64,000 nucleotides of DNA from Candidatus Aminicenantales bacterium (GTDB lineage: Bacteria > Acidobacteriota > Aminicenantia > Aminicenantales > Saccharicenantaceae): assembly GCA_049513915.1 (NCBI GenBank), contig JBEKVN010000013.1, positions 78,265 through 142,264 of the forward strand. The letters run 5' to 3'. A program made the position numbers and the translations under genes. This document shows positions 1-52,245 of this stretch, piece after piece. The number at the start of each line of letters is the position of its first letter. Position 1 is the stretch's first letter. A model generated the notes under the pieces. It was not told where the DNA came from and did not search any database. It worked only from the letters and a program-made list of their open reading frames with translations.

Positions 1-1015
1 CGAGGCCGCCTTCGGGGCCGGGGTGGTCTTCGAGGCCATCAACGAGAACTTGGACCTCAAGGTCAAGCTCCTGGGACAGATCCGGTCGCGGCACGCGGGC
101 GACCCCTGGTTTCTGACGAACACGTCCTCCATCCCGATCCACGAACTCGATAAGAAGGCGGCTCTCGGCGGCCGGATCATCGGATTCCACTTCTACAATC
201 CGCCGGCCGTCCAGAAGCTCGTCGAGCTGATCCGGGCGGAGACGACGCTCCCGGAACTGGCCGATTTCGCGGCCCAGTACGCGAAAAAACTCAGGAAAAC
301 CGTGGTCCCCTCGCGGGACGTCGCCGGCTTCATCGGCAACGGGCATTTCATAAGGGATGCGCTCTACGCCGTTTCTGAAGTCCAACGCCTGGCCGGGGAC
401 TTCGGCTTCGCCGAATCCGTCTATATGGTCAACAAGGTCAGCCAGGACTTCCTGATCCGCCCCATGGGCATTTTCCAGCTCATCGATTATGTCGGCCTCG
501 ACGTCTGCCGAAGCATCCTACGGGTCATGAACGAACGGCTGGCCGGCGGTCATCTCCAAAGTTCGTTGATCGACAGGTTGGTCGAGATGGGGATCACGGG
601 CGGGCAATTTGCCGACGGATCCCAAAAGGACGGCATCGTCAAGTACGAAAAAGGGCGGCCGGCGGGCGTTCTCGATCCTGACAAAAGGCTCTATGTCTCC
701 TTCGCCGACATCGCGCCGCGCGCAGACGGGCGACTCGGCGACCCGCCCTCCGCCGCCAAACCCTGGAAAACCGTCATCCAGGTTCCAAACCGGACGGCCT
801 ACCTCGACGGCTATTTTCGTGAGCTGGCCGCGATGAGAACTCTGGGCGCCGACCTCGCCAGAAGATACGGTCTTAAGTCCAGGGACATCGGCCTCGGGTT
901 GGTGAGGGACCGGGTCGCCGAGCGCGAAGAGGACGTCAACACGGTCCTGCTGACAGGCTTTTATCATGCCTACGGCCCGGTCAATCGCTATTTCGACGGA
1001 GAGGATACGCCATGA
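1..1015 (+). CDS. 3-hydroxyacyl-CoA (3-hydroxybutyryl-CoA) dehydrogenase, 5-prime truncated at window edge
   Basis: Reading frame is open to base 1. NAD-dependent HBD-type motif IGFHFYNPP and a C-terminal dimerisation-like region. Stop overlaps the next start (ATGA at 1012-1015). Confidence 0.75.
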   Translation, partial: EAAFGAGVVFEAINENLDLKVKLLGQIRSRHAGDPWFLTNTSSIPIHELDKKAALGGRIIGFHFYNPPAVQKLVELIRAETTLPELADFAAQYAKKLRKTVVPSRDVAGFIGNGHFIRDALYAVSEVQRLAGDFGFAESVYMVNKVSQDFLIRPMGIFQLIDYVGLDVCRSILRVMNERLAGGHLQSSLIDRLVEMGITGGQFADGSQKDGIVKYEKGRPAGVLDPDKRLYVSFADIAPRADGRLGDPPSAAKPWKTVIQVPNRTAYLDGYFRELAAMRTLGADLARRYGLKSRDIGLGLVRDRVAEREEDVNTVLLTGFYHAYGPVNRYFDGEDTP

Positions 1016-2259
1016 ATAAACGCCGGCGGAAAGTCTTCATGACGGCGGGATATCAGACAATCGCCCTGGGAACGGGGCGGAAGGAATTCAATCCCACAAC
1101 GCCCCGGCCCGGACTCGAGGACTATATCCGGGAGGCGGGCCAGGGGACACTGAAGCAGATCGGAGGCGGGGCAAACGTCGACGAAGGCGTGATCAGCAAT
1201 TTTATGGCCGCCCGCTTCAACCGGCAGGGCAACCTCGCGGCCCTGATCCCTATGATCGACGAAAGCCTGCGCTGGAAGCCCTCGACGCGCGTCGAGGGCG
1301 CCTGCGGTTCCGGAGGACTTGGCCTTATCACCGCGATCAAGTCTGTGCTGGCCGGCACCGCCGAGGTCGTCCTGACGGTCGGAGTCGAAGTCCAGAACAC
1401 GGTCAAGGCGATCTACGGCGCGGACATCCTGGCCGGTGCGGGCTGGTACCGAGGCGAACGGAAGACCGGCCACGCCTATTTCTTTCCGTCTCTCTTCAGC
1501 GACCGGGCCGGGGCTTACTTTGAAAAATATGGTCGGGACAAAACGCGGAGGGCCTTCGCCCGATGGTACCGGAACGCCGTCGAGAACGCCCGGCTCTGCG
1601 AGACGGCCCAGGAATTCCACAACGCGTGCGAAGACCTCGAGACGCTGGGCCTGACCGAGCCGAACCCGCGGAACTTCGTCGACCACCTCAACGTTTACGA
1701 CTGCTCCAAGGTCTCCGACGCGGCGGCCGCGATCGCCGTCGCCTCGGAGGAGGGATTGAAGCGCTGCGGTATCGCCGGGAAGGACGCGGTGGAGGTCTTG
1801 GGGTGGGGCCAGGTCGAGGCCGATCTGACCATGCCTCCGGCGGACCTGACCGAGCTCGAGACTTCAAAACGGGCCGTCGAGAAAGCCTTCGAATCGTCGG
1901 GGGTCCGCCGCGAGCAGCTCGGCACGGTGGAATGCCACGACTGCTTCACCATCTCCGGACTCCTCTCCGTCGAGGCCATCGGCTTCGCCGGGAAGGGCGA
2001 AGGGCCGGACTATGTTCTCGAGGGAAAAACATCGCGCGGGGGGGAGATCCCCTTCAACACGTCCGGAGGGCTGATCGGCTGGGGGCATCCGACGGGCGGG
2101 ACCGGCGTGCGCCAGGCCGTCACGGTCTGGCAGCAGCTCACGGGGAGGGCGGGCAAGTGGCAGTTGGAAATCTCGCCGAAGAAGCCCTATGCGCTCTCCG
2201 TGAACATGGGCGGGAACGACAAGACCGTCGTCGCCGTCGTCTACAAGCGGGCGGCCTGA
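1012..2259 (+). CDS. thiolase-family acetyl-CoA C-acyltransferase (SCP-x/archaeal-type thiolase)
   Basis: 415 aa. Gly-rich thiolase core (EGACGSGGLG) and a C-terminal GWGHPTGGTG motif like GHPLGATG of nonspecific thiolases. Translationally coupled to the upstream dehydrogenase. Confidence 0.7.
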   Translation: MNKRRRKVFMTAGYQTIALGTGRKEFNPTTPRPGLEDYIREAGQGTLKQIGGGANVDEGVISNFMAARFNRQGNLAALIPMIDESLRWKPSTRVEGACGSGGLGLITAIKSVLAGTAEVVLTVGVEVQNTVKAIYGADILAGAGWYRGERKTGHAYFFPSLFSDRAGAYFEKYGRDKTRRAFARWYRNAVENARLCETAQEFHNACEDLETLGLTEPNPRNFVDHLNVYDCSKVSDAAAAIAVASEEGLKRCGIAGKDAVEVLGWGQVEADLTMPPADLTELETSKRAVEKAFESSGVRREQLGTVECHDCFTISGLLSVEAIGFAGKGEGPDYVLEGKTSRGGEIPFNTSGGLIGWGHPTGGTGVRQAVTVWQQLTGRAGKWQLEISPKKPYALSVNMGGNDKTVVAVVYKRAA

Positions 2260-3454: not shown

Positions 3455-5590
3455 ATGTCATCATCTTCCGTCAACTCAGCGAAGTTCAAGATCCTGGACG
3501 GCCTGTTGAGGCCGAAAACGATCGCCGTGGTCGGCGCTTCGGGCACGCCGGGGAAACTCGGCTACACGGTCCTCAAGAACATTCTCGCCAACGGATACAG
3601 CGGCACCGTATACCCCATCAACCTCAACGACCCCGAGATCCTGGGCCTCAAGGTCTACAAATCCGTCCTGGACGTCCCGGGAGAGATCGACGCGGCCATC
3701 ATCTGCGTTCCGGCCAGGTTATGCGCCCAGGTCACCGAAGAGTGCGGAAAAAAGGGCGTCAAGGGCCTGATCGTCATCACGTCCGGTTTCAGCGAAATCG
3801 GCCGGAAGGACCTGGAGGAGGAGATCGTCCGGATCGCCTTGAGGTATGGGACCCGAGTCCTCGGGCCGAACATCGTCGGCATCATGTCAAACTCGGACAA
3901 GCTCAACGCCTCCTTCGCGCCCTTCCTCCCCTTCCCCGGCAAGCCTTCGCTCGTTTCCCAGAGCGGGGCCCTCATCGTGGCCATGGACGCCGCGACCTAC
4001 TTCCGGCGCGTCGGCTTCGACAAGATGATCTCGGTCGGCAACATGGCCGACGTGGACCTCGCCGACTGCATCGAGTGGCTCGACGCCGACCCGAACACGA
4101 CCTGCATATCCCTCTATATCGAAGGCCTGAAGAACGGCCGGCGCTTCATCGACGCGGCCCGGCGCGTCCGGACGCCCGTGGTGGCCCTCAAGGCCGGGGT
4201 TTCCGCCCACGGCGCGGCGGCGGCGGCCTCGCACACGGGGTCCCTGGCCGGGGCGTCCAAAGTCTACGAGGCCGCCTTCAACCAGGCCGGGATCGTCCAG
4301 GCGGTGGACCTGAACACGCTTTTCGACCGCAGCCTCGCCCTGTCACTCCAACCGGCCATGAGGGGCGACAACCTGTTCGTCCTGACGAACGGCGGCGGCG
4401 TGGGTGTCCTCGCGACAGACGCGGCCGAACGCTTCGGGGTCCCGCTCCAGTTCGCGCCGCCCGACCTCCAGGCCGAGCTTCGCAAGCATATGCCCGAATT
4501 CGGCTCGGCCAAGAACCCGGCCGACCTGACCGGCATGGCCGGAAAAGACTGGTATTATGAATGCGTCAAGGCCATCCTGGCCCATCCCTGGGTGGACGCC
4601 CTGGTTATCCTCTACTGCGAGACGTCGCTCACGGTCCCCATGGAGGTCGCCCAGGCCATCCATAAGAGCATCCTGGATTCGGGCGTGACCGATAAGCCGG
4701 TGGCCATCGCCTTCGTGGGCGGCGAGCAGTCGGAGGAATGCCTGCACTGGTTCATCGAGAAGGGTCTCCCGGCTTACGAAGTGCCGGACAAAGCGGTCAA
4801 CGCGGTCGCCGCCCTGCGCGAGTACTCGAGGATCCGGTCCCTGGTCACCGAGATCCTGCCCGAGCCCGGCGGCAAGTCGCCAGACCAAGCCAGAGAAGTT
4901 ATCGCCGCCGCCCGCGCCCAGGGCCGGACCGTCCTGACCGAGGTCGAGGCCAAAGAGGTCTTTTCCGCCTATGGGCTCCCGGTGGCCGCGACGGTCCTGG
5001 CCCGAACCGAGGACGGGGCGGTCACGGCGGCGAAGAAGATCGGATACCCGGTCGTCATGAAGATCGTCTCGCCCGACATCATCCACAAGTCCGACGCGGG
5101 CGGGGTCAAGGTCAACATCAAGGACGACGGCGGCGCACGCTCCGCTTACCGGGCCATCATGGCCGCCGCCAAGACCTATAAGGCCGACGCGGACATCCAC
5201 GGGATCGCCGTCCAGCCGATGGCGCCGTTCGGGACCGAGGTCATTCTCGGCTCCGTCGACGACCCGAGCTTCGGCCCCACGGTCATGTTCGGGCTGGGGG
5301 GGGTCTTCGTCGAGATCCTCAAGGACGTGACGTTCCGGGTCGCGCCCGTGTCGTCCACGCAGGCCGGCCGCATGCTGGAGGAGATCGAAGGCGCGCCGAT
5401 CCTGGCGGGGGCGCGGGGTGAATCGCCCAGGGACCGGGAGGCGCTCATCCAGCTCATCATGGCCTACTCACGGATGATCCTGGACCTCGAGGACGACATC
5501 GCCGAGTCCGACGCGAACCCGGTCTTCGTGTACGAAAAAGGGAAAGGGCTCGCAGTCGTCGACGCCCGGATCATCCTCAAGAAAAAATAG
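3455..5590 (+). CDS. ADP-forming acetyl-CoA/acyl-CoA synthetase, fused alpha+beta (NDP-forming, ATP-grasp)
   Basis: 711 aa. N-terminal CoA-binding/succinyl-CoA-synthetase-like region (IAVVGASGTPGKLG). C-terminal ATP-grasp beta domain (KEVFSAYGLPVA, VVMKIVSPDIIHKSDAGGVKVNI). Confidence 0.8.
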   Translation: MSSSSVNSAKFKILDGLLRPKTIAVVGASGTPGKLGYTVLKNILANGYSGTVYPINLNDPEILGLKVYKSVLDVPGEIDAAIICVPARLCAQVTEECGKKGVKGLIVITSGFSEIGRKDLEEEIVRIALRYGTRVLGPNIVGIMSNSDKLNASFAPFLPFPGKPSLVSQSGALIVAMDAATYFRRVGFDKMISVGNMADVDLADCIEWLDADPNTTCISLYIEGLKNGRRFIDAARRVRTPVVALKAGVSAHGAAAAASHTGSLAGASKVYEAAFNQAGIVQAVDLNTLFDRSLALSLQPAMRGDNLFVLTNGGGVGVLATDAAERFGVPLQFAPPDLQAELRKHMPEFGSAKNPADLTGMAGKDWYYECVKAILAHPWVDALVILYCETSLTVPMEVAQAIHKSILDSGVTDKPVAIAFVGGEQSEECLHWFIEKGLPAYEVPDKAVNAVAALREYSRIRSLVTEILPEPGGKSPDQAREVIAAARAQGRTVLTEVEAKEVFSAYGLPVAATVLARTEDGAVTAAKKIGYPVVMKIVSPDIIHKSDAGGVKVNIKDDGGARSAYRAIMAAAKTYKADADIHGIAVQPMAPFGTEVILGSVDDPSFGPTVMFGLGGVFVEILKDVTFRVAPVSSTQAGRMLEEIEGAPILAGARGESPRDREALIQLIMAYSRMILDLEDDIAESDANPVFVYEKGKGLAVVDARIILKKK

Positions 5591-5595
5591 CCGCC

Positions 5596-5677
5596 TCTAT
5601 TTCGGTGACACACAACTAAATACACTAATTAGGGACCTGTGCCTATTTCGGTAATTAGTTGTGTGTCACCGAAATTG
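5596..5677. repeat. AT-rich palindromic intergenic element, family A copy 1
   Basis: Perfect 20-bp inverted arms TTTCGGTGACACACAACTAA (5600-5619) and TTAGTTGTGTGTCACCGAAA (5655-5674), plus an internal direct repeat CTATTTCGG. A second copy lies at 21895-21975. GC is far below the window average. Confidence 0.6.
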
Positions 5678-12716: not shown

Positions 12717-15437
12717 ATGTCTCATCCAACCAGTCTCCGAAAGGCCGTCGCTCCGGCGGCCACGTTGGTTATTTTCCTGAGCTTTGCGATTCTGAGCCCG
12801 GCCGCCGCCCCCGGCGCCGAAATGAAGAAGGCCGACAAGGCCAACTATGAGCTGGCCGCGCGCTTTACCTCGGCCAAGGTCGGGAAGCTCGTCTTCGACA
12901 CTTCCGTCCAGGCCCACTGGCTCGAGACGGGCGACAGGTTCTGGTACAGCTGGGAAACGAGCAAGGGACGGTCGTTTTCCATCGTCGACCCCCTGCGCGC
13001 CACGAAGAGCCCGCTCTTCGACAACGCCCGGATGGCGGCCCTGCTGACCGGGATCGTCCTGACCCCGTATGACTCCCAGCACCTGCCCTTCCGGACCGTG
13101 AAATTCATCGACAAAGACACGGCCCTCCGCCTGGAGCTCGAGGTCCAGAAGGACTCGGACGTCCGCCTCGGGGACAAGATCGTCAAGGCCGGGGACATCG
13201 AGAAGAAGCGCGAAGACGCCAAGAAGGCCAAGGAGGAGGAGGCCAAGACGCAGGAGAAGAAAGACCAAGAGAAGAAGGAGCAGGACAAGAAGGACCTGGA
13301 AAAGAAGGAGCTGGATAAAAAGGACCAGGATAAAAAAGACGCCGATAAGGACAAGGCCAAGGAGCCCGAGAAAAAAACGACCACCCTCTATTTCGAGTAT
13401 CAGCTCGCCACGGGCACGCTGACGCTCCTCCCCGACTACGAGGCGCCGCCCAAGCGGCCCAAATGGGCGTCCGTTTCCCCCGATGAAAAAATCGTCATCT
13501 TCGCCCGCGGCTTCAACCTCTTCATGATGGACGCCGAGAACTTCAAGCTGGCCCAGAAAAAAGCCGACGACGCGGCCATCAAGGAGGTCCAGCTCACGAC
13601 CGACGGCGAGGAGCACTATTCCTACGCCCGTGACCTCAATGAGGAAGATAAGAAGGAGCTCCAGAAGGACGAGAAGGACCGCAAGGATTACCGCGTCCCG
13701 GCCGGCTATATCGTCTGGTCCAAGGACTCGAAAAAGTTCGCCTGTGTCCGCGAGGACGAACGCAAGGTGGGCGACCTCTGGGTTATTAACGTCCTGGCCA
13801 ACCCGCGCCCGACGCTCGAAACCTACCGCTACGCCATGCCGGGCGAGGAAAACCAGGCCCAGCCCGAGCTCCTCGTTTTCGATATCGCGAGCAAGGGCAA
13901 GGTCAAGATCAAGGCCGACGGCTTCAAGGACCAGACCCTGGGGGTCGAGACAGCGCCCCGCCGCAACGTGGACCGCGAGAAGGACTTTCCGCCTCCGTCC
14001 CAGTGGCTGAGCGACACGTCGGACAAGCTCTATTTCGGGCGCCAGAGCCGGGACCTCCACAAGTATGACGTCTGCGTCGCCGACACGGCGACCGGCGACG
14101 TGAAGGTCTTGATCGAGGAGCGCCTGAATACCTATATCGACGTCGAGTCCCTCCGCCTTGTCAACGGCGGCAAAGAAATGGTCTGGTGGTCCGAGCGCGA
14201 CGGCTGGGGCCATTACTACCTCTATGACGGCGACGGCAAGCTCAAGTCGCAGATCACTTCCGGCGAGTTCACCTGCCAGGGGATCGAGGGCGTCGACGAG
14301 AAGACCCGCGTCCTCTACTTCAACGCCTGCGGCCGCGAGCCGAGCGAGGACCCCTACTTTTTCCACCTCTACCGGGTCAACCTGGACGGCACGGGGCTCC
14401 GGCTCCTCAACCCCGGCGACGCCAATCACGGGGCCGACGCCGACGACAACCTGCGCGTGTTCATTGACACGTTCTCGCGCGTCAACACGGCCCCGGCCTC
14501 GGAGCTGCGGGACATGATGGGGAACGTCGTCCTCAAGCTCGAAACGACGGACACGGGCGCTCTTGTCGAGGCCGGCTACAAGTTCCCCGAGCCGTTCAAG
14601 GTCAAGGCCGACGACGGCATCACCGATCTCTACGGCGTCATGTACAAACCCTTCGACTTCGACCCCGCCGTGAAGTATCCGATCATCGCTTACGTCTATC
14701 CGGGCCCCCAGACCGAGAGCGTAACCAAGACCTTCTCGCCCCGGAACGGCAACGTCGCCCTGGCCCAGCTCGGGTTCATCGTCATCGAAGTCGGCAACCG
14801 CGGCGGCAACCCCATGCGCTCGAAGTGGTACCACAACTACGGCTATGGCAACCTCCGCGACTACGGCCTGGCCGACAAGAAGCGGGCCATCGAGGAGCTG
14901 GGCATCAGGTACCCCTATATCGACGCCGACCGGGTCGGCATCTACGGCCACTCGGGCGGCGGTTTCATGACGGCCGCAGCCCTGCTCGTCTATCCCGATT
15001 TCTTCAAGGTCGGCGTGTCCTCGTCCGGAAACCACGAGAACAACATCTACAACCGCTGGTGGAGCGAAAAGCATCACGGCGTCAAGGAAGTCACGGACAA
15101 GGAAGGGAACATCAAGTTCGAGTACAGCATCGAGAAGAACTCCGAGATCGCCAAGAACCTCAAGGGCCACCTCCTGCTCACGACGGGGGACATGGACAAC
15201 AACGTCCACCCGGGGAACACCATCCGGCTGGCCAACGCCCTGATCAAGGCCAATAAGCGCTTCGACTTCTTCCTCTTCCCGGGCCAGCGCCACGGCTACG
15301 GCGACATGAACGACTACTGGTTCTGGATCCGGGCCGACTACTTCGCCAAGTACCTGCTCGGCGATTTCTCCCAGACCGTCGACCTCATCGAACTGCAGAA
15401 GGAGAAAGAGCAAACGGGGGACAAGAAGGGACGGTAG
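12717..15437 (+). CDS. dipeptidyl peptidase IV (S9B prolyl oligopeptidase family) with Lys/Glu-rich insert
   Basis: Signal peptide. DPP4-type N-terminal propeller and a C-terminal alpha/beta hydrolase with catalytic GHSGGG serine motif, later Asp and His (DNNVHP). A 60-aa K/E/D-rich low-complexity insert lies at aa 161-220. Confidence 0.85.
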   Translation: MSHPTSLRKAVAPAATLVIFLSFAILSPAAAPGAEMKKADKANYELAARFTSAKVGKLVFDTSVQAHWLETGDRFWYSWETSKGRSFSIVDPLRATKSPLFDNARMAALLTGIVLTPYDSQHLPFRTVKFIDKDTALRLELEVQKDSDVRLGDKIVKAGDIEKKREDAKKAKEEEAKTQEKKDQEKKEQDKKDLEKKELDKKDQDKKDADKDKAKEPEKKTTTLYFEYQLATGTLTLLPDYEAPPKRPKWASVSPDEKIVIFARGFNLFMMDAENFKLAQKKADDAAIKEVQLTTDGEEHYSYARDLNEEDKKELQKDEKDRKDYRVPAGYIVWSKDSKKFACVREDERKVGDLWVINVLANPRPTLETYRYAMPGEENQAQPELLVFDIASKGKVKIKADGFKDQTLGVETAPRRNVDREKDFPPPSQWLSDTSDKLYFGRQSRDLHKYDVCVADTATGDVKVLIEERLNTYIDVESLRLVNGGKEMVWWSERDGWGHYYLYDGDGKLKSQITSGEFTCQGIEGVDEKTRVLYFNACGREPSEDPYFFHLYRVNLDGTGLRLLNPGDANHGADADDNLRVFIDTFSRVNTAPASELRDMMGNVVLKLETTDTGALVEAGYKFPEPFKVKADDGITDLYGVMYKPFDFDPAVKYPIIAYVYPGPQTESVTKTFSPRNGNVALAQLGFIVIEVGNRGGNPMRSKWYHNYGYGNLRDYGLADKKRAIEELGIRYPYIDADRVGIYGHSGGGFMTAAALLVYPDFFKVGVSSSGNHENNIYNRWWSEKHHGVKEVTDKEGNIKFEYSIEKNSEIAKNLKGHLLLTTGDMDNNVHPGNTIRLANALIKANKRFDFFLFPGQRHGYGDMNDYWFWIRADYFAKYLLGDFSQTVDLIELQKEKEQTGDKKGR

Positions 15438-21894: not shown

Positions 21895-21975
21895 ATAACG
21901 GTGACACATAACTAAATACACTAAATAGGGATATGCGTCTATTTCGGTAATGAGTTATATGTCACCGAAATCAAC
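21895..21975. repeat. AT-rich palindromic intergenic element, family A copy 2
   Basis: CGGTGACACATAACTAAATACACTAAATAGGGA...CTATTTCGGTAATGAGTTATATGTCACCGAAAT. Roughly 85% identical to 5596-5677 with the same arm/core layout. Confidence 0.6.
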
Positions 21976-22072
21976 CGGACCGGGTTTGACCGGGCCCGGG
22001 ATTCTTAGTAAAATACTAAGGAATGATGATCGACTTTAGCGGGAAGAGTCTCACAGGAGGAAGGGGGGTGTC

Positions 22073-28075: not shown

Positions 28076-29137
28076 TCAGTGGCCGTGACGATGATGCGTG
28101 TCCGGCCAATGGCCGTGGGCATGTTCGGTCCCCTCATGGACGTGTTCGTGGGTGTGGGGTTCCCGGATCGGGCCGTCGTGCGCGTGGAGATGGTGAAGGT
28201 CCGCATGGCTGTGGGAATGGGTGTGTGTGGTCCTCTCATGCCTGTGGGCGTGGGCGTGCCTCTCGCCGACGATCAGGGCGACGGCCACGGCCATCAGCAT
28301 CCCGGCCGCCGCCATGGGCCAGCGGACGGCGTCCCTCAAGAGGACGAGCGCGACCAGCGACCCGGCAAACGGCCCGAAACTGAAAAAAGCCCCCGTCCGG
28401 AACGCCCCCAGGCCCTTGAGGGCCCGGATAAACAGGACCAGGCTCAATCCGTAGCAGACGGCTCCGATGAGCAATCCGTAGGCGGCCGCCGCCCCCAGCC
28501 GATATCCTTGTCCCAGGATAAAAGCCGCGGCCGTCGAAACAGCCCCGGCGGCGAGCCCCTTGATCCTGGCAATTTCGACCGGGTCCTTATCCGAGATCTG
28601 GCGCGTCAAGTTGTTATCAAGCCCCCAGCCGATCATCGCGGCGAGAACCAGGACGGGGCCCGTCAGATTGAACCGGCCTTGCCCGGGGTTCCAGGAAAGC
28701 AGCACGCCGGCCGCGGTCATCATGGCCAGGGCCAGCCAGGTCCTCCTCCCCGCATTCTCCCGGAATAGAAAAACGGCGATGAGCGCCGTGGCCAAGCCTT
28801 CAAAGTTCAGGAGGAGCGAGGCCGAAAATCCGGATATCCGGCTCAAGCCCTCCATCAGGCAAACCGGTCCGATGATGCCTCCCGTGAGGACCGCCCCGGC
28901 CAGCCAGGGAAGGTCCTTTTTTTCGAGGTGGGCTTCCCCGCCCCCCGCGGAGCCGTCCCTCGGGCCCACTGCCCGCCTGGTCACGGAATAGGCCGAGAGG
29001 CCGAGAAAAACGCCCAGATACAGGAGGCCCGCCAGCGCGACGGGGCGGACGTCCCCGAGCAGGAGCTTGGCCAGGGGAGTGCTGACGCCGAACAACACCG
29101 CCGAGAGAAGGACCGCGACGACCGGTTTCACGTTCAT
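28076..29137 (-). CDS. DMT-superfamily (EamA-like) transporter with His-rich C-terminal tail
   Basis: 10 TM helices with duplicated EamA halves. C-terminal roughly 60 aa is HxH-rich (HAHAHRHERTTHTHSHSHADLHHLHAHD...HGHWPDTHHRHGH). Confidence 0.7.
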   Translation of the reverse strand: MNVKPVVAVLLSAVLFGVSTPLAKLLLGDVRPVALAGLLYLGVFLGLSAYSVTRRAVGPRDGSAGGGEAHLEKKDLPWLAGAVLTGGIIGPVCLMEGLSRISGFSASLLLNFEGLATALIAVFLFRENAGRRTWLALAMMTAAGVLLSWNPGQGRFNLTGPVLVLAAMIGWGLDNNLTRQISDKDPVEIARIKGLAAGAVSTAAAFILGQGYRLGAAAAYGLLIGAVCYGLSLVLFIRALKGLGAFRTGAFFSFGPFAGSLVALVLLRDAVRWPMAAAGMLMAVAVALIVGERHAHAHRHERTTHTHSHSHADLHHLHAHDGPIREPHTHEHVHEGTEHAHGHWPDTHHRHGH

Positions 29138-29207
29138 GAGACGCCCTCCGATTATAAATCCGCCCGCTCCCCTGGCTCAAGCGGTAATCGTCGACCGGCC
29201 TCAAGAG

Positions 29208-29400
29208 GGGTGAGGGGACAGCCGGAACGTCATGCGCGGTTTAGCCCAAGAATCGCGCTCTCCGAGGGTAGTTCCAGGGGGAACCGCCAAAACTTGTCTG
29301 AGCTCAGCGTAGCGCACGCTGAGCGAGTTGTTTTGGTGCCGAGGAGAGTGGGATTCTTGCGGCGTGAAGAACCGCGCTCTGGAGTGGAGGCTGACCCTTA
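29208..29400. repeat. family C conserved leader block (copy 1) containing a 111-bp hairpin insertion flanked by 8-bp direct repeat CGCGCTCT
   Basis: The block GCCGGAACGTCATGCGCGGTTTAGCCCAAGAATCGCGCTCT...GGAGTGGAGGC matches 48103-48170 except for the inserted 29262-29372. Direct repeats lie at 29254-29261 and 29373-29380. Inner hairpin at 29287-29336. Confidence 0.45.
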
Positions 29401-29406
29401 CCCCTC

Positions 29407-29435
29407 TTGAGGCCCGGCGGGTTTTCGGCTATAAT
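29407..29435 (+). promoter_or_regulatory. sigma70-like promoter TTGAGG-17-TATAAT upstream of EF-G paralog
   Basis: -35 TTGAGG at 29407-29412 and -10 TATAAT at 29430-29435. The same architecture sits upstream of the M16 peptidase at 48223-48251. Confidence 0.45.
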
Positions 29436-29526
29436 ATGGGCTCATTAGCTCGAATTGGATGACTCCGTCAGTCTCGAAGCGGCTCCCTTCGGAATTCCCG
29501 GACAGAGGCGAATAAGCAAAAGGCAG

Positions 29527-31623
29527 ATGTCTATGAGCACAGAAATCACCAGGATGCGGAATATCGGCATCAGCGCCCACATCGACTCCGGCAAGACAAC
29601 CTTGACGGAGCGGATTCTCTTTTACTGCAAGAAGATCCACAAGATCCACGAGGTCAAGGGCAAGGACGGCGTCGGCGCCACCATGGATTCCATGGACCTC
29701 GAGCGCGAGCGGGGCATCACCATCGCCTCGGCCACGACCAACGTCACCTGGGACGACCATTCCATCAACATCATCGACACGCCCGGCCACGTCGACTTCA
29801 CGATCGAGGTCGAGCGCTCGCTGCGCGTCCTCGACTCGGCCATCCTCGTGCTCTGCTCGGTCGGAGGCGTCCAGTCCCAGACGATCACCGTCGACCGCCA
29901 GCTCCGGCGCTACAACGTCCCCTTCATCGCCTTCGTCAACAAGCTCGACCGCGTCGGCGCCAACCCCTTCAAGGTCCGGGACCAGATCGCCGAGAAACTC
30001 GGGCACAACGCCGTCCTCATGCAGATCCCAGTCGGCCTCGAGGACGGGTTCAAAGGCATCATCGACCTCGTGGCCATGAAGACCCTATCCTTCGACGGGC
30101 CCGACGGCGAGATCGTCCGCGCCGGGGAGATCCCGGCCGGGCTCGAAGCCGAAGCCCGGAAGGCCCGCGAAGCGATGATCGACGCCGCCTCCATGTTCTC
30201 CGACGAGCTCATGGAAGCCGCGCTCGAGGGCAGGGCCACCGAGGACATGATCCATGCCGCCGTGCGCAAGGGCACCGTCGCCCGAAAGCTCATGCCCGTT
30301 TTCGTCGGGTCCGCCTTCAAAAACAAAGGAATCCAGCCTCTTCTCGACGGCGTCGTCCGCTATCTGCCCAACCCGGCCGAGGTGGAAAACCGGGCCATCG
30401 ACCTGGACGAGGAGGGCCTGGAGCACGTCCTCGCCGCCGACCCGGACGCGAAGACCGTCGCCCTGGCTTTCAAGCTCGAAGAAGGGCCATACGGGCAGCT
30501 GACCTATATCCGGATCTACCAGGGGAGCGTCCGCCGGGGCGACGAGCTCGTCAACACCCGGTCCGGCCAGAAGATCAAGGTCGGGCGGCTCGTCCGGATG
30601 CACGCGGACGACATGGCGGAAATTCAGGGCGCCGAGTGCGGCGACATCGTGGCCCTTTTCGGGATCGACTGCGCCTCGGGAGACACCTTCTGCAGCCCGG
30701 GCCTGAACCTGGCCATGACGCCCATCTTCGTCCCCGACCCGGTCATTTCCCTGGCCATCACGACCGTGGACAACGCCGCCGCCGACCGGGTGGCCAAGGC
30801 CCTTAACCGGTTCACCAAGGAAGATCCCACCTTCCGAACCCACGTCGATTCCGAGTCCAACCAGACCATCATCCAGGGCATGGGCGAGCTCCACCTCGAT
30901 ATTTACGTCGAGCGCATGAAGAGGGAATACCGGGCCGAGGTCCAGACCGGAATGCCCCAAGTCGCCTACCGCGAGGCCATCACGCACCGTGTCGAATTCG
31001 ACTACACCCATAAAAAGCAAACCGGAGGCGCCGGCCAGTACGCCCGGGTCATCGGTCACATCGAGCCGCTGCCCAAGGGGACTTACGAGTTCGTGAACGA
31101 AGTCCGGGGCGGCCGCGTCCCCCGCGAATTCATTCCGTCCTGCGACAAGGGTTTCAAGGCCGTCCTCAAAAAGGGCCCGCTCATCGGCTTCCCGGTGACC
31201 GGGATCAGGGTCGTCCTGAACGACGGCGCGTACCACCCCGTGGACTCCTCGGACATCGCCTTCCAGATGGCCGCCCAGGGCGCCTTCCGGCAGGTCTACA
31301 TGAAGGCCAAGCCGCAGATCCTCGAGCCCATCATGAAGGTTTCGGTCGAGGGGCCGAGCGAGTTCGCCGGCAACGTCTTCGCCACGATCAGCCAGAGGCG
31401 CGGCATCATCGTCAGCTCGGTCGAGGACGGGATGTTCGCCCGGGTCGACGCCGAGGTCCCGCTCAGCGAGATGTTCGGCTACTCATCGGTCCTGAGGTCG
31501 CTGACCCAGGGCAAGGCCGAATTCACCATGGAATTCCTGAAATACGGCAGGGTGCCGCCGCACGTCGCCGAGCTCCTGACGGAGCAGTACCTGGAAAAAC
31601 AGAGGAAAGCCTCCCAGAAATAA
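29527..31623 (+). CDS. elongation factor G paralog (EF-G2-like translational GTPase)
   Basis: G1 motif [18 protein letters not shown], plus EF-G domains II-V. The ORF track starts at 29455. The ATG at 29527/29533 (MSMSTEITR) fits homologous N-termini better. Confidence 0.85.
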
Positions 31624-40990: not shown

Positions 40991-41091
40991 AAGAATGGGG
41001 ACGAAGAATGGGGACGGTCCTGGTTTTCCATCCGCGGCCCAACCGGGATTTCTCTCGCCTATCCTAGAAAACCAGGACCGTCCCCATTTTC
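40991..41091. repeat. family B hairpin element copy 1 (25-bp inverted arms GAATGGGGACGGTCCTGGTTTTC / GAAAACCAGGACCGTCCCCATTTTC)
   Basis: Arms at 41003-41028 and 41067-41091 around a 38-nt loop. A partial tandem duplicate GAAGAATGGGGAC precedes the left arm. Confidence 0.6.
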
Positions 41092-44185: not shown

Positions 44186-44963
44186 GCCTGTTCGCCGGCT
44201 GGAATTCGGGGCAAGAGGGCGGCTTGACACCGAGATAGACAACCGCGATGCCGCCGGACAGCCGGCGGAAGAGGACGTCGTCGAAGCCTGCCTCCCTGAT
44301 ATTCTCTGCTATTTCCTCTGGCGCCGGGAAGACCCGGATGGACTCGGCCAAATAGCGAAAGGATCCTCCCCCGCGGCAGATCAACCGTCCCGCGAGCGGC
44401 ATCCAGCAAAAAGAGTAGGCGTGATAAAGGGCGCGGAAAAACCGGTTAACGGGGAGGGAGAACTCGATGACCATCAGTTTTCCTCCCGGCTTGAGGACGC
44501 GCAGGAACTCGCCGAGGCCTTTTGCGGGATGGGCCAGGTTGCGGAGGCCGAATCCGATGGTCACGGCGTCGAAAGTCCCGCCGGGAAAACTCAGATCCTC
44601 GGTATCGCCCTGGACGAAGCCGATCGGGGCCCTGGCCGCCGGCCCGCGGGCCCGGCTCTCGCCGACCTCCATCATGGCCCGGCTGAAATCATAGACCACG
44701 ACCTGGCCGGCGGGACCGGCCGGGCGGGCGACGAGCCTGGCCAAGCCCGCCGTTCCGCCGCAGGCATCCAGAACAAAGTCCCCTTCCCCGACGCCCAGGA
44801 GGCTCACCGCGTTCTTCCGCCAGCGGGAATCGAGTCCGAAACTCAGCACCGTATCGGCGAAGTCGTAGGCCCGGGCGATTTCGTCGAACTCGGCCCGGAC
44901 GAGGCGCTTTTTTTCGGCCGGAGTGACCTCCCGGTATCCGAAAGGGACTGTTTCTTTGGTCAA
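44160..44963 (-). CDS. ubiE: class I SAM-dependent methyltransferase, UbiE/MenG (demethylmenaquinone / ubiquinone C-methyltransferase) family
   Basis: VLDACGGTAG motif I (written in read direction). Family length and motif spacing. 3-prime end overlaps the convergent M16 gene. Confidence 0.7.
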   Translation of the reverse strand: MTKETVPFGYREVTPAEKKRLVRAEFDEIARAYDFADTVLSFGLDSRWRKNAVSLLGVGEGDFVLDACGGTAGLARLVARPAGPAGQVVVYDFSRAMMEVGESRARGPAARAPIGFVQGDTEDLSFPGGTFDAVTIGFGLRNLAHPAKGLGEFLRVLKPGGKLMVIEFSLPVNRFFRALYHAYSFCWMPLAGRLICRGGGSFRYLAESIRVFPAPEEIAENIREAGFDDVLFRRLSGGIAVVYLGVKPPSCPEFQPANRPISSGRGS

Positions 44964-45112
44964 CGCATCTCCCGGCCGCAGTTTCCACGGTCCTGCACTG
45001 GGTCCTAATATAGAGGATTACCGGCCCCGACTAAAGACTTTTCGTTCTTCGGCGATCAACCCGGGAGCCGGCCTTGAATTCGCCCGGGGGCTCTGCTATA
45101 AGCAGGGGGTGG

Positions 45113-45202
45113 GGAAAATGGGGACGGTCCTGTTTTTCCGGCTGCATCCCAAGCGAGACTTCTCTTGCTTATATAAGGAAAAACAGGACCGTCCCCATTT
45201 TC
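45113..45202. repeat. family B hairpin element copy 2 (arms GGAAAATGGGGACGGTCCTGTTTTTCC / GGAAAAACAGGACCGTCCCCATTTTC)
   Basis: Arms at 45113-45139 and 45177-45202 around a 37-nt loop similar to copy 1. Preceded by TTGAAT-17-TATAAG at 45075-45103. Confidence 0.6.
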
Positions 45203-45267
45203 AGTCCCCATTTGCAGACCCCGGCTCCGGGGATACGCCCGCTCCGCAGCGCGAAAGGGAGGATCCC

Positions 45268-48075
45268 ATGAAACAGCGCAATCCATCCCGTCAGGCGGGG
45301 ATCTTCGCCTTTTACGCCTTCATTGCTCTTCTCCTAGTCGCGCCCCTGCCGGTCCGGGCCGCGGCCAATGACCTCCAGTATCTCGAGCTCGCGACGCGCG
45401 ACGGCCTCGCCGTGCGCTCTTACCAGGTCTCGAGCGGCGAAATGTTCATCCTTCCCTCCTCCCGGCCGCTCTTTTCGGTCAGGGTCGACAACGTCCTCGT
45501 CTCGACGCTTGACGCGAAGGTCAGCCAGGAGCAGGACGTCATCGCCGCCCGTCTGACCGACGGAGTCACGGGACGCTTCCGGGTCGGCCGCCGGTCCGAC
45601 CGGGGCTGGAGGATCGACATCGTATTCGAAAACGGCTCCAAGAAGCCCGTCGTCCTCGAGAACATCGTCCCCTTCGGCGAAGACCCGCGGGACATCTTCA
45701 TCACCGGCTACGGGCCGCCGGCCCTGGCCCGGGCGGGGCTCTTCCGCCCGGGGAAAAAGCCGGTCAGCGTGATCCTCCCCGATAACGCTTGGGAGCTGGG
45801 CTACGGAGCGGTCGAGCGGCCCGGAGGTTATTCTCTCTGCGGGCTGGCCCGGCGCGGCAAGGGCGCAAAAGCCGAACTCCGGCGCTACCGGACGGTCCTC
45901 GAACCCGGCGGAACCGTTGAATACACGATCTACGCCGACGTCTACTCCGGCGAGTGGCAGGACGGGCTCCGGGCCATGTTCCACGGACGCCGGCTGTTCG
46001 ACCTCGAGAAGTTCGACCGCGCCCTCTACGACCGTCCGGACCTCGCCTGGGTCAGGAAGAGTTTCGTCATGGTGCTGCAGATGGCCTGGGACCGGGAGTT
46101 TTTTGACCGGACGAGCGGCCGCTACGAAATCGAGCCGTTCCTCGAAAAGAGCCGCGCGGTCCTCGGCGGTTACGACGTTTTCGGCATCTGGCCGACCTGG
46201 CCCCGGCTCGGGCTCGACGACCGGAACCAGTGGGACCTCTATCGCGATCTCCCGGGCGGTCTCCGGGGACTGCGTGAGCTCGCCGATCTCGCCCACAAGC
46301 GAGGCACGAAGTTCTTCGTCGCCTACAATCCCTGGGACACGGACACGCGGCGGGAAAAACCCTTCGAAGGGATGGCCGGCCTCATCCGCGATCTCGATGC
46401 CGACGGAGTCGTTCTCGACACCATGGGCGGGTCCACCAAAGAGGCCCAGAAGGCTGCCGACAGCGTCAAACCCGGGGTCATTATGTACAGCGAGGGCATG
46501 CCGGTTCCCGCGGACATGCCCGATATCGTCGCAAGCCGCGTCCACGACGCGCTTGTGCTATCGCCCGTCCTCAACCTCAACCGTCTCATCGAGCCGGAGT
46601 TTACGATCTTCCGGGTCGCCCAGCTCGCCGACGGAGAGCTCCATCGCGAGGTGGCCGTCGCCTTCTTCAACGGCTACGGCGTCGAGCTCAACGCCTTCAA
46701 GGCCGGACGTCCGGACTGGGTCGCGCCGGACCTGCGGACCCTGGGCCGGGCGGCCATGATCCTGAGGGCCAACGCGTCCGTGCTGAACACGCCGGCGTGG
46801 ACGCCGCTCGTCCGGACGCTCGAAGACGGCGTCTGGGTCAACGAATGGCCGGGGGGCGGCAAGACGATTTACACGATCTATTCGGAAGAACCGGCGGGAT
46901 TCGAAGGTCCCCTCTTCTCCGCGACGGCCGGCGGCGGCAGCCATTTCGTCGACCTCTGGAACCACGCCGAGGTCGAGCCCATCGTCGTCGACGGCGAGAG
47001 CTCGGTGCCGGCCTCGCTCCCGCCCTACCCCGCCTCCGCTTCGGGGACGCGGCGCGAAGGCGCCATCGGCTGCGTTGGCCGCTTCGAGAAAGCATTGGAA
47101 GCCGCAATCGACGGGGACGTGCTCAGGCTGAAGTCCTCGCGCGGGGACAGGATCCTGGTCTGGCGGGGAAATCCCTCCTACGAAAAAAGGCCCGAATCGC
47201 TCGAGGCCGGAGCATGGGCCCGGCCCCTCGCGGGGCTGCTCGGCTCCTACCGGGGAAAAATCGTCATCCAGCTCATGGATGGGACCGAGCTGCTGGACGA
47301 GCGCGTGCTCACCATCGAGCCGGGGACACCGCTTAGGACGAGCCCGGCCGAGAAGACGGAGCCCGCGGCCACCGCTCCTCCGGGGATGGTTGATGTCCCC
47401 GGCGCCGACTATGAATTCCGCGTGAACAAGGCCGATACGTTCATTCCCCTGCCGGATTTTTCGAGGCCGCGCAAGGTCGCGGTGGATCGTTTCTTCATGG
47501 ACGCGCGGCCCGTGACCAACCTGGATTTCAAGCAGTTTCTGGATGCCACGGGATACAGGCCCGCCGACGCCGCGAACTTCCTCAAGCACTGGACGGGCGG
47601 GAAGATCCCGGCCGGCCAGGCCGATTATCCGGTCGTCTACGTGAGCTTCGAAGACGCGAAAGCTTACGCCAAGTGGGCCGGAAAGCGCCTTCCCACGGAG
47701 ATCGAGTGGCAGTATGCCGCCCAGGGCACGGACGGCCGGACCTGGCCGTGGGGGAAGACGTTCACGAAAGGGGCGTGCAATGACGGCCTCGGCCGGGCCA
47801 CGCCTGTCAACGCATTCCCCCGGGGGAAAAGCCCGTTCGGGGTCCTCGACCTCGTCGGGAACGTCTGGCAGATGACGGCCGACGTTTACGATACGTCAAG
47901 CTATACCTACGTTATCATCCGCGGCGGCAGCTTCTGGGACCCGACTTCGAGTTCCTGGTACCTGAAGGGCGGCCCGCAGCCCTTGGACGAGCACCAGGTG
48001 CTCCTGCTCGTGTCCCCGGGCTTCGACCGCAGCCCGAACGTCGGATTCCGCTGTGTCAAGGACGCGACCCGCTGA
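45268..48075 (+). CDS. secreted multidomain protein: N-terminal glycoside-hydrolase-like TIM barrel plus C-terminal FGE-sulfatase (SUMF1/formylglycine-generating enzyme-like) domain
   Basis: Signal peptide at MKQRNPSRQAGIFAFYAFIALLLVAPLPVRAAA; ORF-track start 44923 rejected. C-terminal 300 aa has FGE-sulfatase hallmarks (VSFEDAKAYAKWAGKRLPTEIEWQYAA, GNVWQMT, RGGSFWD, NVGFRCV). Confidence 0.65.
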   Translation: MKQRNPSRQAGIFAFYAFIALLLVAPLPVRAAANDLQYLELATRDGLAVRSYQVSSGEMFILPSSRPLFSVRVDNVLVSTLDAKVSQEQDVIAARLTDGVTGRFRVGRRSDRGWRIDIVFENGSKKPVVLENIVPFGEDPRDIFITGYGPPALARAGLFRPGKKPVSVILPDNAWELGYGAVERPGGYSLCGLARRGKGAKAELRRYRTVLEPGGTVEYTIYADVYSGEWQDGLRAMFHGRRLFDLEKFDRALYDRPDLAWVRKSFVMVLQMAWDREFFDRTSGRYEIEPFLEKSRAVLGGYDVFGIWPTWPRLGLDDRNQWDLYRDLPGGLRGLRELADLAHKRGTKFFVAYNPWDTDTRREKPFEGMAGLIRDLDADGVVLDTMGGSTKEAQKAADSVKPGVIMYSEGMPVPADMPDIVASRVHDALVLSPVLNLNRLIEPEFTIFRVAQLADGELHREVAVAFFNGYGVELNAFKAGRPDWVAPDLRTLGRAAMILRANASVLNTPAWTPLVRTLEDGVWVNEWPGGGKTIYTIYSEEPAGFEGPLFSATAGGGSHFVDLWNHAEVEPIVVDGESSVPASLPPYPASASGTRREGAIGCVGRFEKALEAAIDGDVLRLKSSRGDRILVWRGNPSYEKRPESLEAGAWARPLAGLLGSYRGKIVIQLMDGTELLDERVLTIEPGTPLRTSPAEKTEPAATAPPGMVDVPGADYEFRVNKADTFIPLPDFSRPRKVAVDRFFMDARPVTNLDFKQFLDATGYRPADAANFLKHWTGGKIPAGQADYPVVYVSFEDAKAYAKWAGKRLPTEIEWQYAAQGTDGRTWPWGKTFTKGACNDGLGRATPVNAFPRGKSPFGVLDLVGNVWQMTADVYDTSSYTYVIIRGGSFWDPTSSSWYLKGGPQPLDEHQVLLLVSPGFDRSPNVGFRCVKDATR

Positions 48076-48102: not shown

Positions 48103-48170
48103 AGGGCCGAAGGGGAATGGCCGGAACGTCATGTGCGGCTTAGCGCAAGACGCACTCTGGAGTGGAGGCC
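48103..48170. repeat. family C conserved leader block, copy 2 (uninterrupted)
   Basis: GGCCGAAGGGGAATGGCCGGAACGTCATGTGCGGCTTAGCGCAAGACGCACTCTGGAGTGGAGGCC. Matches the two halves of 29208-29400 that flank its insertion. Confidence 0.45.
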
Positions 48171-48222
48171 ATCCCCGAGGCCCTTTCAAAGACGCACAGT
48201 CACGAGACCCGTCCGACCTTTC

Positions 48223-48251
48223 TTGAGCCCGGCGCGAGCGCTGTGTATAAT
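48223..48251 (+). promoter_or_regulatory. sigma70-like promoter TTGAGC-17-TATAAT upstream of M16 peptidase
   Basis: -35 at 48223-48228 and -10 at 48246-48251. Paralogous to the promoter at 29407-29435. Confidence 0.45.
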
Positions 48252-52053: not shown

Positions 52054-52061
52054 TTTTTTTT

Positions 52062-52245
52062 ACATCAGGAGAGGCTCGATCCTAACCGATCGGACCCGGC
52101 AACCTGGGGCGGACACCCGAGGTGCTCACTCGCCAGCGGCGAGGATGTGGTCGCGAAAGCGAACGCGGCAACCAAGTGTCCAACGGCCGACAAACCCGCC
52201 TTCCTGATGATAGAGAGGTGGGTTTTTTTGCGGCCGCGCATTGAC
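52062..52245 (+). promoter_or_regulatory. SAM riboswitch (SAM-I clan: SAM-I/SAM-IV-like) in metK 5-prime leader
   Basis: P1 strands CATCAGGAG (52064-52072) and CTTCCTGATG (52200-52209). Conserved core AGGAGAGGC...GGACCCGGCAACC resembles SAM-I ...AGAGAGGCGGAGGGA...GCCCGGCAACC. Followed by a hairpin plus T7 tract. metK lies directly downstream. Confidence 0.55.
52191..52228 (+). terminator. putative riboswitch expression-platform terminator (ACCCGCC...GGTGGGT + TTTTTTT)
   Basis: 7-bp stem with one G-U around a 16-nt loop, overlapping the P1 3-prime strand, followed by a seven-T run at 52222-52228. Confidence 0.3.

Follow-up and report, generated by a model that had tools for sequence, protein, structure and literature searches.

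RESULTS

A conserved block at two loci of the window

We analysed a 64,000-nt stretch of contig JBEKVN010000013.1 from a Candidatus Aminicenantales bacterium (here called the window), in which a block of conserved sequence precedes the promoters of two genes, one for a paralogue of elongation factor G (EF-G) and the other for an M16 peptidase. A first-pass annotation had read block and promoter as one shared regulatory module, interrupted at the EF-G paralogue by a 111-bp MITE-like insertion (MITE, for miniature inverted-repeat transposable element). At both loci the block proved to be a copy of a dispersed, imperfectly palindromic intergenic repeat, designated family C, which is specific to Aminicenantes (Acidobacteriota) and is probably a non-autonomous DNA element. 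The features of the two copies are as follows.

29196 to 29415, no strand assigned: family C copy 1, medium-long form (about 200 nt), with the outer stem peculiar to this copy; a single imperfect palindrome spans the whole region
29192 to 29216 and 29395 to 29419: inverted-repeat arms of copy 1
29207 to 29404: segment of copy 1 matching the unit that is inverted in place at locus L049
29222 to 29234, plus strand: left core CCGGAACGTCATG, invariant in all copies and one side of an asymmetric internal loop
29234 to 29241, plus strand: left arm of the inner stem, GCGCGGTT, pairing 8/8 with 29370 to 29377
29243 to 29369, plus strand: interior module of the long-form type (the proposed insert plus adjoining bases)
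29247 to 29263, paired with 29343 to 29359: stem P3 of the interior
29248 to 29261, plus strand: first unit of a direct repeat, AAGAATCGCGCTCT, containing the exact 8-mer CGCGCTCT
29271 to 29284: small hairpin of the interior, GTTCC-AGGG-GGAAC
29287 to 29336: apical hairpin of the interior, with the tip GCTCAGCGT/ACGCTGAGC
29367 to 29391, plus strand: right side of copy 1, comprising the second direct-repeat unit AAGAACCGCGCTCT (29367 to 29380), the right arm of the inner stem AACCGCGC (29370 to 29377) and the right core CTCTGGAGTGGAGGC (29377 to 29391)
48103 to 48187, plus strand: family C copy 2, short form (nhmmer match 48106 to 48181, E = 7e-25)

The similarity between the two loci is real. 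GCCGGAACGTCATGYGCGGYTTAGC was found in the window only at 29221 to 29245 and 48120 to 48144 and in none of 100 shuffled sequences, and the right core was confined to its site in copy 1 and to 48155 to 48169. When the extra segment of copy 1 was removed, the cores matched at 45 of 49 aligned positions, with a 2-nt indel. The exact 8-nt direct repeat that had been reported was confirmed at 29254 to 29261 and 29373 to 29380 and occurs once in the short copy, and the hairpin that had been described at 29287 to 29336 was also present. Copy 1 has 169 nt between its core ends. Copy 2 starts about 28 nt past the stop codon of the upstream plus-strand gene (44923 to 48075, 1050 aa) and lies 53 nt before the -35 box of the M16 peptidase gene.

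Family C is dispersed and occurs in short and long forms

Copies were found by exact core matching in 185,579 species-representative genomes, and the loci that were fetched are numbered L001 to L050. The scan with CCGGAACGTCATGNGCGGNTTAGC gave 39 loci, all of them in five metagenome-assembled genomes (MAGs) and 19 in a single one. These MAGs are labelled Aminicenantes or Aminicenantales, with one labelled Terriglobales. No copy was found on viral contigs. Counting metagenome copies, the family numbers 45 copies or more, from at least six genomes. The block, which had been put forward as a way to define a regulon, therefore does recur widely, but as a dispersed intergenic repeat and not with a regulon.

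The short form (about 78 nt; ggccgaaGGGGAATGGCCGGAACGTCATGTGCGGCTTAGCGCAAGCCGCACTCTGGAGTGGAGGCCATCCCCgaggcc) was represented by 17 copies in addition to copy 2. A long form of about 250 to 300 nt was seen in 14 copies, with 216 to 270 nt between core ends. Both cores and the inner stem are retained, and a conserved interior takes the place of a 5-nt loop, in the order TTAGCC-TTCCCGAAGCGTTTTT-CGAGGGAATCC-variable hairpin-GGCGGCGAGGATGTCTGAGC-variable segment-GCTGAGCGAGTTCCGCAGACGCCGAGAAAGAACGGTTCGGGGAGGCGTGAAGAACCGC. A possible promoter within the long forms (TTGAGG ... CATGAT) was discarded, as it matched at 8 of 12 positions and was not flagged by the scan. Truncated and degenerate copies with the same cores also occur. 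The larger interior that L010 and L033 seemed to possess was considered as an autonomous copy and rejected, since there the truncated left half gives way to other repeats and ordinary genes. Identical 76-nt copies were present at nonorthologous loci in two species (L004, L013, L014 and L032), which fits spread or gene conversion.

At L008, an apparent insertion flanked by CTCTGGAG was resolved into one complete short form and a solo right half (970 to 1130, minus strand). This pair precedes, by about 250 nt, the gene of another EF-G-like GTPase paralogue (33% identity to the one in the window); we judged this proximity to be a coincidence and not a link between the family and EF-G genes.

By gene calls that used G+C content at third codon positions and are approximate, all family C copies are intergenic: 12 have convergent neighbours, 9 have divergent ones and 17 are placed between genes in tandem, the last with 8 copies in one orientation and 9 in the other. 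Such random orientation and mixed gene contexts fit a repeat element and not a leader or operator. In Rfam 15 scans of the window, the EF-G locus and a long-form locus, family C matched no known family (the best hit, Clostridiales-1, scored 21 bits, where the gathering score is 48), and a search of the literature on Aminicenantes repeats found nothing on point. As far as we could find, the family has apparently not been described before in the uncultivated class Aminicenantia.

Family C forms a conserved hairpin

Alignment of the copies revealed that the family is comprised of four constant pieces. These are a GC-rich outer stem, rGGCC[GAA/TC]GGGGA[A/T]TGGCC ... GGCCA[T/A]CCCCGAGGCC; an invariant, asymmetric internal loop in which the left core lies opposite CTCTGGAGTGGAGG; an inner stem of 8 to 9 bp, GYGCGGYTT/AARCCGCRC; and an apex, which is either the 5-nt loop of the short form or the extended, multihairpin interior of the medium-long and long forms. 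Folded as DNA, 29196 to 29415 gave -76.9 kcal/mol (z = -11.4) and copy 2 gave z = -4.3; folded as RNA, 29215 to 29395 gave -98 kcal/mol (z = -7.1). Within copy 1, the left block, CAAGAATCGCGCTCTCC, forms pairs with the right part of the proposed insert, GGAGAGTGGGATTCTTG, and the left arm of the inner stem pairs with the right arm. The -35 box of the EF-G paralogue falls within the outermost stem, CCGGCCTCAAGAGGGG against CCCCTCTTGAGGCC. This palindrome had been missed by the first-pass annotation.

The hairpin is accompanied by compensatory changes. One compensated pair distinguishes the two window copies (GCGCG/CGCGC versus GTGCG/CGCAC), and pair 36/280 of the long copies is UA in nine and CG in six. 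In 20 short copies, a 24-pair structure was paired in 96.9% of cells, with compensatory changes in 8 of the 24 pairs; none of 500 shuffles reached these values, and sliding the 3' partners by 1 to 3 columns gave at most 47.5% pairing. RNAalifold analysis of the 15 long and medium-long copies gave 64 consensus pairs, 21 of which had compensatory changes. Past the family consensus, most copies extend the palindrome with copy-specific, complementary sequence, for example, GAGAGAGT/ACTCTCTC in L006 and GGCAAGAGGCCGA/TCGGCCTCTTGCC in L035.

Very stable folds and compensatory pairs would also be expected if family C had a function at the RNA level, with the hairpin serving as a terminator, 3'-exonuclease barrier or processing site, or the long form as a structured noncoding RNA, and with the internal loop as a protein-binding or tertiary-contact site. 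The location of copy 2 past a stop codon is compatible with this, as are the L044 copy that fills a convergent spacer, the gene that converges on the right end in 11 of the 15 long and medium-long copies, and the apical hairpin of copy 1, which is followed by GAGTTGTTTT and was flagged as terminator-like. Against it, orientation in tandem contexts is random and no conserved promoter is found at a fixed distance from the element. The central A-run, hairpin and T-run at the apex of most long forms was not called a terminator by the scan, and we do not claim it as a bidirectional one. In the outer stems, G:T mismatches were exactly as frequent as A:C mismatches (18 versus 18) and transversions dominated (80), and the inner arms had no wobble-pair strand bias. 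Equal numbers of the two mismatches give no signal for an RNA of either strand. Copy 1, moreover, is situated between two divergent promoter-like sites (29180 to 29151, minus strand, and 29407 to 29435, plus strand) and so need not be transcribed at all. Given also that Rfam offers no match, we regard an RNA-level role as unlikely.

The 111-bp segment is related to the long-form interior

The first-pass annotation had seen in the 111-bp segment a small non-autonomous element that had landed in the block. A small non-autonomous element and an extra segment bounded by a direct repeat are both present, but the element had been assigned to the wrong part, the block itself being the repeat. The segment has CGAGGG, TGTCTGAGC, GCTGAGCGAGTT, GCCGAG and GGCGTGAAGAACCGC in common with the interiors of the 14 long forms. 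Its P3 helix differs from theirs in sequence on both strands, with the same length and with pairing kept. When metagenomes were searched with the insert-specific 22-mer AACCGCCAAAACTTGTCTGAGC, all three matches were inside family C cores, two at the orthologous EF-G site (L048 and L049) and one at a different locus (L050). The L050 copy has a family-typical outer stem and an apical stem, GCTTGGCGT/ACGCCAAGC, that amounts to two compensated pairs. Its 6.2-kb contig also carries two short copies, and copy 2 is 96.5% identical to L050 positions 3668 to 3753. No terminal inverted repeats of the segment were detected; the inverted repeats within 29190 to 29420 pair it with the surrounding block and not end with end.

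The direct repeat was longer than had been noted, with 13 of 14 positions matching between the units at 29248 to 29261 and 29367 to 29380 (the pair that bounds the interior can be written as two AAGAAYCGCGCTCT repeats). It had been interpreted as a target-site duplication. The match falls to 11/14 in L048 and 9/14 in L049; the first unit reads GAGAATCACGCCCT in L049 and L050. Because all three matches were within cores, terminal inverted repeats are lacking and the direct repeat is degraded in sister copies, the segment is, judged by its sequence, an interior module, belonging to a medium-long subfamily that occurs as a unit, and no separate element landed at the EF-G paralogue.

The repeat coincides with the arm that pairs with GCGCGGTT, and this pairing accounts for only 8 of the 14 repeat positions. 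A match of 13/14 is too good for chance and most likely marks an old internal duplication. In view of the overlap, the repeat may be such a duplication or a slippage substrate; a hairpin bounded by direct repeats is the classic substrate of slippage. Slippage that deleted one repeat unit and the interior would leave an element resembling the short form, and recombination with other copies could swap interiors. The change may have run from short to long or from long to short.

The promoters belong to their own genes

The promoters and genes that adjoin the two copies are as follows.

28076 to 29137, minus strand: EamA-family gene (family taken from Pfam labels of orthologues)
29151 to 29180, minus strand: promoter-like site for the divergent EamA-family gene, TTGAGC, 18-nt spacer, TATAAT
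29407 to 29435, plus strand: promoter of the EF-G paralogue, TTGAGG, 17-nt spacer, TATAAT; outside the repeat, with the -35 box within the outer stem of copy 1
29533 to 31623, plus strand: coding sequence of the EF-G paralogue, 696 aa (orthologues have 696 aa and are 82 to 97% identical); a neighbour and not part of the element
48223 to 48251, plus strand: promoter of the M16 peptidase gene, TTGAGC, 17-nt spacer, TATAAT; outside the repeat

TTGAG-N18-TATAAT does occur exactly twice in the window, at 29407 to 29435 and 48223 to 48251. The two promoters had been described as near identical; they share only both hexamers, their spacing and, with a 1-nt offset, the heptamer CCCGGCG, and their ungapped spacers match at only 5 of 17 positions. 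The order of block and promoter is likewise the same at both loci, but the distance from the block to the -35 box is 15 nt at one and 53 nt at the other. As the block is upstream of the promoters, it is not a leader.

In relatives, each promoter is kept with its own gene where the block is missing. The EF-G promoter (CTCTTGAGGC ... TATAAT) and its leader of about 95 nt persist in 8/8 orthologous loci, whether or not the repeat is present. L040, L042 and L044 all retain the M16 promoter with its GGAGGTGACGGCATG start region, and none of these three has a family C copy at that position. The promoters thus are independent of the repeat, and copies elsewhere occur in any gene context, so that the notion of a paralogous promoter/operator module was abandoned. 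The fixed position and orientation and conservation with genes that mark a cis-regulatory element were not found for family C: its contexts are random, the promoters persist without it, and at L049 it is inverted.

Two RNA features of the window were recorded. The 5' leader of the EF-G paralogue (29436 to 29532, plus strand) is strongly conserved over eight lineages (CGTCAGTCTCGAAGCGGCTCACTCCCGAATTCCCGGACAGACG); RNAalifold gave a weak structure with no compensatory pairs, and there was no Rfam match. An S-adenosylmethionine (SAM)-I/IV riboswitch aptamer (52057 to 52185, plus strand; 42.2 bits against a gathering score of 41.1) lies upstream of an open reading frame (ORF) that is labelled S-adenosylmethionine synthetase in orthologous loci.

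Family C turns over at orthologous sites

Orthologous loci were fetched via homologues of the EF-G paralogue. The sequence upstream of the -35 box varied as follows (percentages are the identity of EF-G to that of the window).

L044 (89%): family C short form, uninterrupted
L040 and L041 (97%): collapsed 35-nt remnant, with the left core inverted and the right core missing
L042 and L043 (92%): no core, small hairpin only
L045 (93%): no core, small hairpin only
L046 (89%): unrelated palindrome with a 20- to 22-bp stem
L047 (88%): unrelated palindrome with a 20- to 22-bp stem

The metagenomic locus L048 has the same arrangement as the window. Its flanks are 94.5 to 97.5% identical to those of L045, with 222 nt at the site in the filled allele (L048) and 37 nt in the empty one (L045). 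L049 has flanks 95 to 99% identical to L040. Its 198-bp element aligns to window positions 29207 to 29404 on the same strand, and both flanks align in reverse, which indicates that the element was inverted in place. L040 and L041 are deletion derivatives of the L049 allele. Presence/absence polymorphism was also met in the M16 upstream region and in the E2/arabinofuranosidase spacer, which has a short copy in L044, 23 bp in the window and an unrelated hairpin in L041.

These comparisons bear on three of the alternatives. In L040 and L041 the core is destroyed and in L042 and L045 it is absent, yet the adjacent promoter and leader are kept, which again speaks against an RNA-level role. The regulatory module with a separately inserted MITE and an 8-bp target-site duplication, that is, a small regulon of the EF-G paralogue and the M16 peptidase, can claim the uninterrupted short form at the orthologous EF-G site of L044 and the direct repeat itself, which is real and occurs once in the short copy. 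This scheme is nonetheless very improbable: the 45 or more copies occupy all kinds of intergenic context, promoters persist without the block and the block precedes them at differing distances, the insert is never seen alone and resembles the long-form interior, the repeat is degraded in sister copies, and the medium-long form also exists at L050.

Third, the EF-G upstream site holds some palindrome in 8/8 lineages, with unrelated sequences. This could mean that family C is a structural or protein-binding site at the DNA level (for example, a cruciform or a site for nucleoid proteins that would keep neighbouring transcription units insulated or take up supercoiling), selected at intergenic hairpin niches and not mobile. 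Its independence of orientation, the invariant asymmetric loop, which resembles a recognition site, and the position between divergent promoters would suit such a role. At the E2/arabinofuranosidase spacer, however, relatives carry a hairpin and the window does not, and the identical 76-nt copies at nonorthologous loci of different species suggest spread or gene conversion over independent selection at each site. We therefore consider a purely DNA-level site quite improbable.

The unrelated long, perfect palindromes (20- to 22-bp stems) at family C sites of other lineages were located at L046 2790 to 2880, L047 2780 to 2835 and L041 4103 to 4162, and two of them have common GAAGGGGTCA...TGACCCCTTC ends. 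It appears that these intergenic family C sites are general hotspots for hairpin elements.

Other repeats near family C and in the window

A second palindromic repeat of about 190 nt, designated family X (GGTGGCGCCGAGGCCGTCC...GGGAACCTGTCCCGGTTCCCCC...GGACGGCCTCAGCGCCACC), often adjoins long forms of family C, with which it makes up mosaic arrays resembling bacterial interspersed mosaic elements (BIMEs). Family X lies about 60 to 250 nt upstream of long forms in L001, L005, L007, L017, L019, L020 and L023 and is also present in L016, L021, L025, L028, L034 and L036. In 496 kb of fetched sequence, the motif GACGCACACGGACAGGACCC had 17 occurrences. Of these, six were directly downstream of a family C copy, at 15 to 30 nt (L009, L017, L020, L023, L027 and L029), and the reverse complement was found upstream of six copies. 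A diverged version at about 48190 to 48215 of the window, AGACGCACAGTCACGAGACCCGTCCG, matches at about 20 of 25 positions by eye.

Three further repeats were noted in the window. A palindromic pair of 73 nt at 5603 to 5675 and 21899 to 21971 is 88% identical (CGGTGACACACAACTAA...TTAGTTGTGTGTCACCG); a promoter-like site at 21986 (TTGACC-17-TAAAAT) follows 15 nt after the end of its second copy, so that a palindrome abuts a -35 box, as at the EF-G paralogue. An intergenic pair at 41007 to 41091 and 45114 to 45202 (families D9 and D18) contains GGGGACGGTCCTG and its complement and resembles the GGGACAGTCCC and GGGTCCTGTCC motifs that adjoin family C copies in other genomes. Finally, a 15-nt-periodic, GAG/AAG-rich run at 13197 to 13678 on the plus strand (families D1 and D2) is apparently coding and probably represents a low-complexity tract rich in Lys, Glu and Asp.

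DISCUSSION

Family C as a non-autonomous element

The data indicate that both loci carry copies of one dispersed repeat whose modular forms, conserved hairpin, random orientation and polymorphism are independent of the neighbouring promoters. We propose that family C behaves as a non-autonomous DNA element of the kind represented by repetitive extragenic palindromic (REP) sequences, BIMEs and Correia elements, and we give this reading, with its restriction to Aminicenantes, a probability of about 0.6. The family would spread, or be homogenised, among intergenic hairpin sites through a trans-acting enzyme, recombination between copies or both, and one form would turn into another either through recombination or when replication slips across the direct repeat flanking the interior. 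We do not expect the element to have a specific role in regulating the EF-G paralogue or the M16 peptidase. Where the element is transcribed, as may be the case for copy 2, the 3' end of the transcript would fold into a very stable hairpin.

Among known kinds of element, Correia-type MITEs and REP/BIME/REPIN elements come closest. Correia elements of Neisseria (Correia repeat enclosed elements, or CREE, also known as Neisseria miniature insertion sequences, or NEMIS) and similar MITEs are non-autonomous and palindromic over their full length, with short and long forms that differ by an internal segment; they are intergenic, near or overlapping promoters, give long hairpins if transcribed, and have a TA target-site duplication. 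Family C resembles them in its full-length palindrome, its short and long forms and its intergenic sites near promoters, and it is the whole family C unit that has many dispersed copies with conserved inverted-repeat ends. Unlike Correia elements, it lacks a TA or other direct target-site duplication, its outer flanks are inverted-complementary and copy specific, and no cognate transposase was found in the fetched loci.

Like the REP, BIME and REPIN (REP doublet forming hairpin) elements of Proteobacteria, which are associated with REP-associated tyrosine transposases (RAYTs), family C is extragenic, GC rich and hairpin forming, has many copies per genome in random orientation, and is polymorphic in presence between relatives. 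Also BIME-like is its mosaic arrangement with other short modules, here the family X palindrome and the GACGCACACGGACAGGACCC motif. REP sequences are 20- to 40-nt palindromes with a terminal GTAG or CGTC, a stem of 8 to 9 bp that starts with A/T pairs, a loop of 4 to 5 nt and a CCA-like tail, and no dedicated transposase is known for the CGTC-tagged type (PMC3733652). The inner hairpin of family C recalls the latter, with its 9-bp stem, 5-nt loop and CGTC in front. However, this CGTC is 3 nt from the stem, the stem starts with G-C/U-A, the tail is TCTGG and not CCA, and the hairpin is embedded in a larger conserved one; with these misfits, we did not assign the family to the CGTC-tagged REPs. 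Nor is the unit a 20- to 40-nt palindrome or head-to-head dimer; it is a single asymmetric hairpin of 78 to 300 nt with an invariant 13/14-nt internal loop, and copies that fit the strict pattern number tens per genome and not hundreds.

Integron attC sites were also considered. They share with family C an imperfect palindrome, a centre of variable length and conserved unpaired bases. Family C, in contrast, is highly conserved in sequence and not in structure only, its copies are single and dispersed and not in cassette arrays, no R''/R' boxes were apparent by eye, and GTTTAGC does not fit GTTRRRY. Membership was not adopted.

Several observations weigh against a mobile element. No transposase or recurrent gene was found near the copies; when 364 ORFs, drawn from about 430 kb of loci, were compared all against all by BLASTP, the only clusters were those of orthologous neighbourhoods. 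No gene flanked by inverted copies in the fetched loci resembled a transposase, and the inverted pair in L050 flanks ordinary lipoyl-synthase-like and metallophosphoesterase-like ORFs (translations read by eye). Among 20 aligned short forms, no direct-repeat target-site duplication was found at any possible boundary, the flanks being inverted-complementary rather than direct repeats, and no filled/empty pair had clean boundaries, as the empty allele differs over its whole 37-nt stretch. Copies are kept at orthologous sites between species (L014/L027, L018/L037, L003/L024 and L025/L034), which is compatible with a host function; L014 and L027 differ at 5 positions in 78 nt, a divergence similar to that of their flanks (about 88 to 92% identical). 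The compensatory changes and copy-specific outer stems are equally compatible with selection on folded RNA or single-stranded DNA, and every copy has the same T:G pair at alignment columns 35/66; read as U:G, this pair also favours an RNA-level role.

The inverted-complementary, copy-specific flanks could arise by insertion at hairpin tips, by inverted copying of a flank or by selection for pairing. Taken together with the absence of direct target duplications and with inversion in place, they would be jointly explained if family C were the cis substrate of a hypothetical recombination or transposition system specific for hairpins in single-stranded DNA. Such a system would place the element at the tips of palindromes that are already present, or copy one flank inverted onto the other side, and the asymmetric loop (CCGGAACGTCATG opposite CTCTGGAGTGGAGG) would be its recognition site. 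In a variant of this idea, the long form of about 300 nt would be a new structured RNA. We consider this explanation doubtful and favour the REP/BIME/Correia-like element set out above.

For annotation, these results remove a false regulon and a false call of a MITE in a regulatory region, and the strictly conserved cores provide a good marker for Aminicenantes contigs. If the inverted-complementary flanks reflect an insertion mechanism, family C would be of interest for REP/RAYT-type and hairpin-targeting mobile DNA. For the biology of the group, the results document an intergenic repeat family with modular short, medium-long and long architectures, quick turnover, and inversion at orthologous sites.

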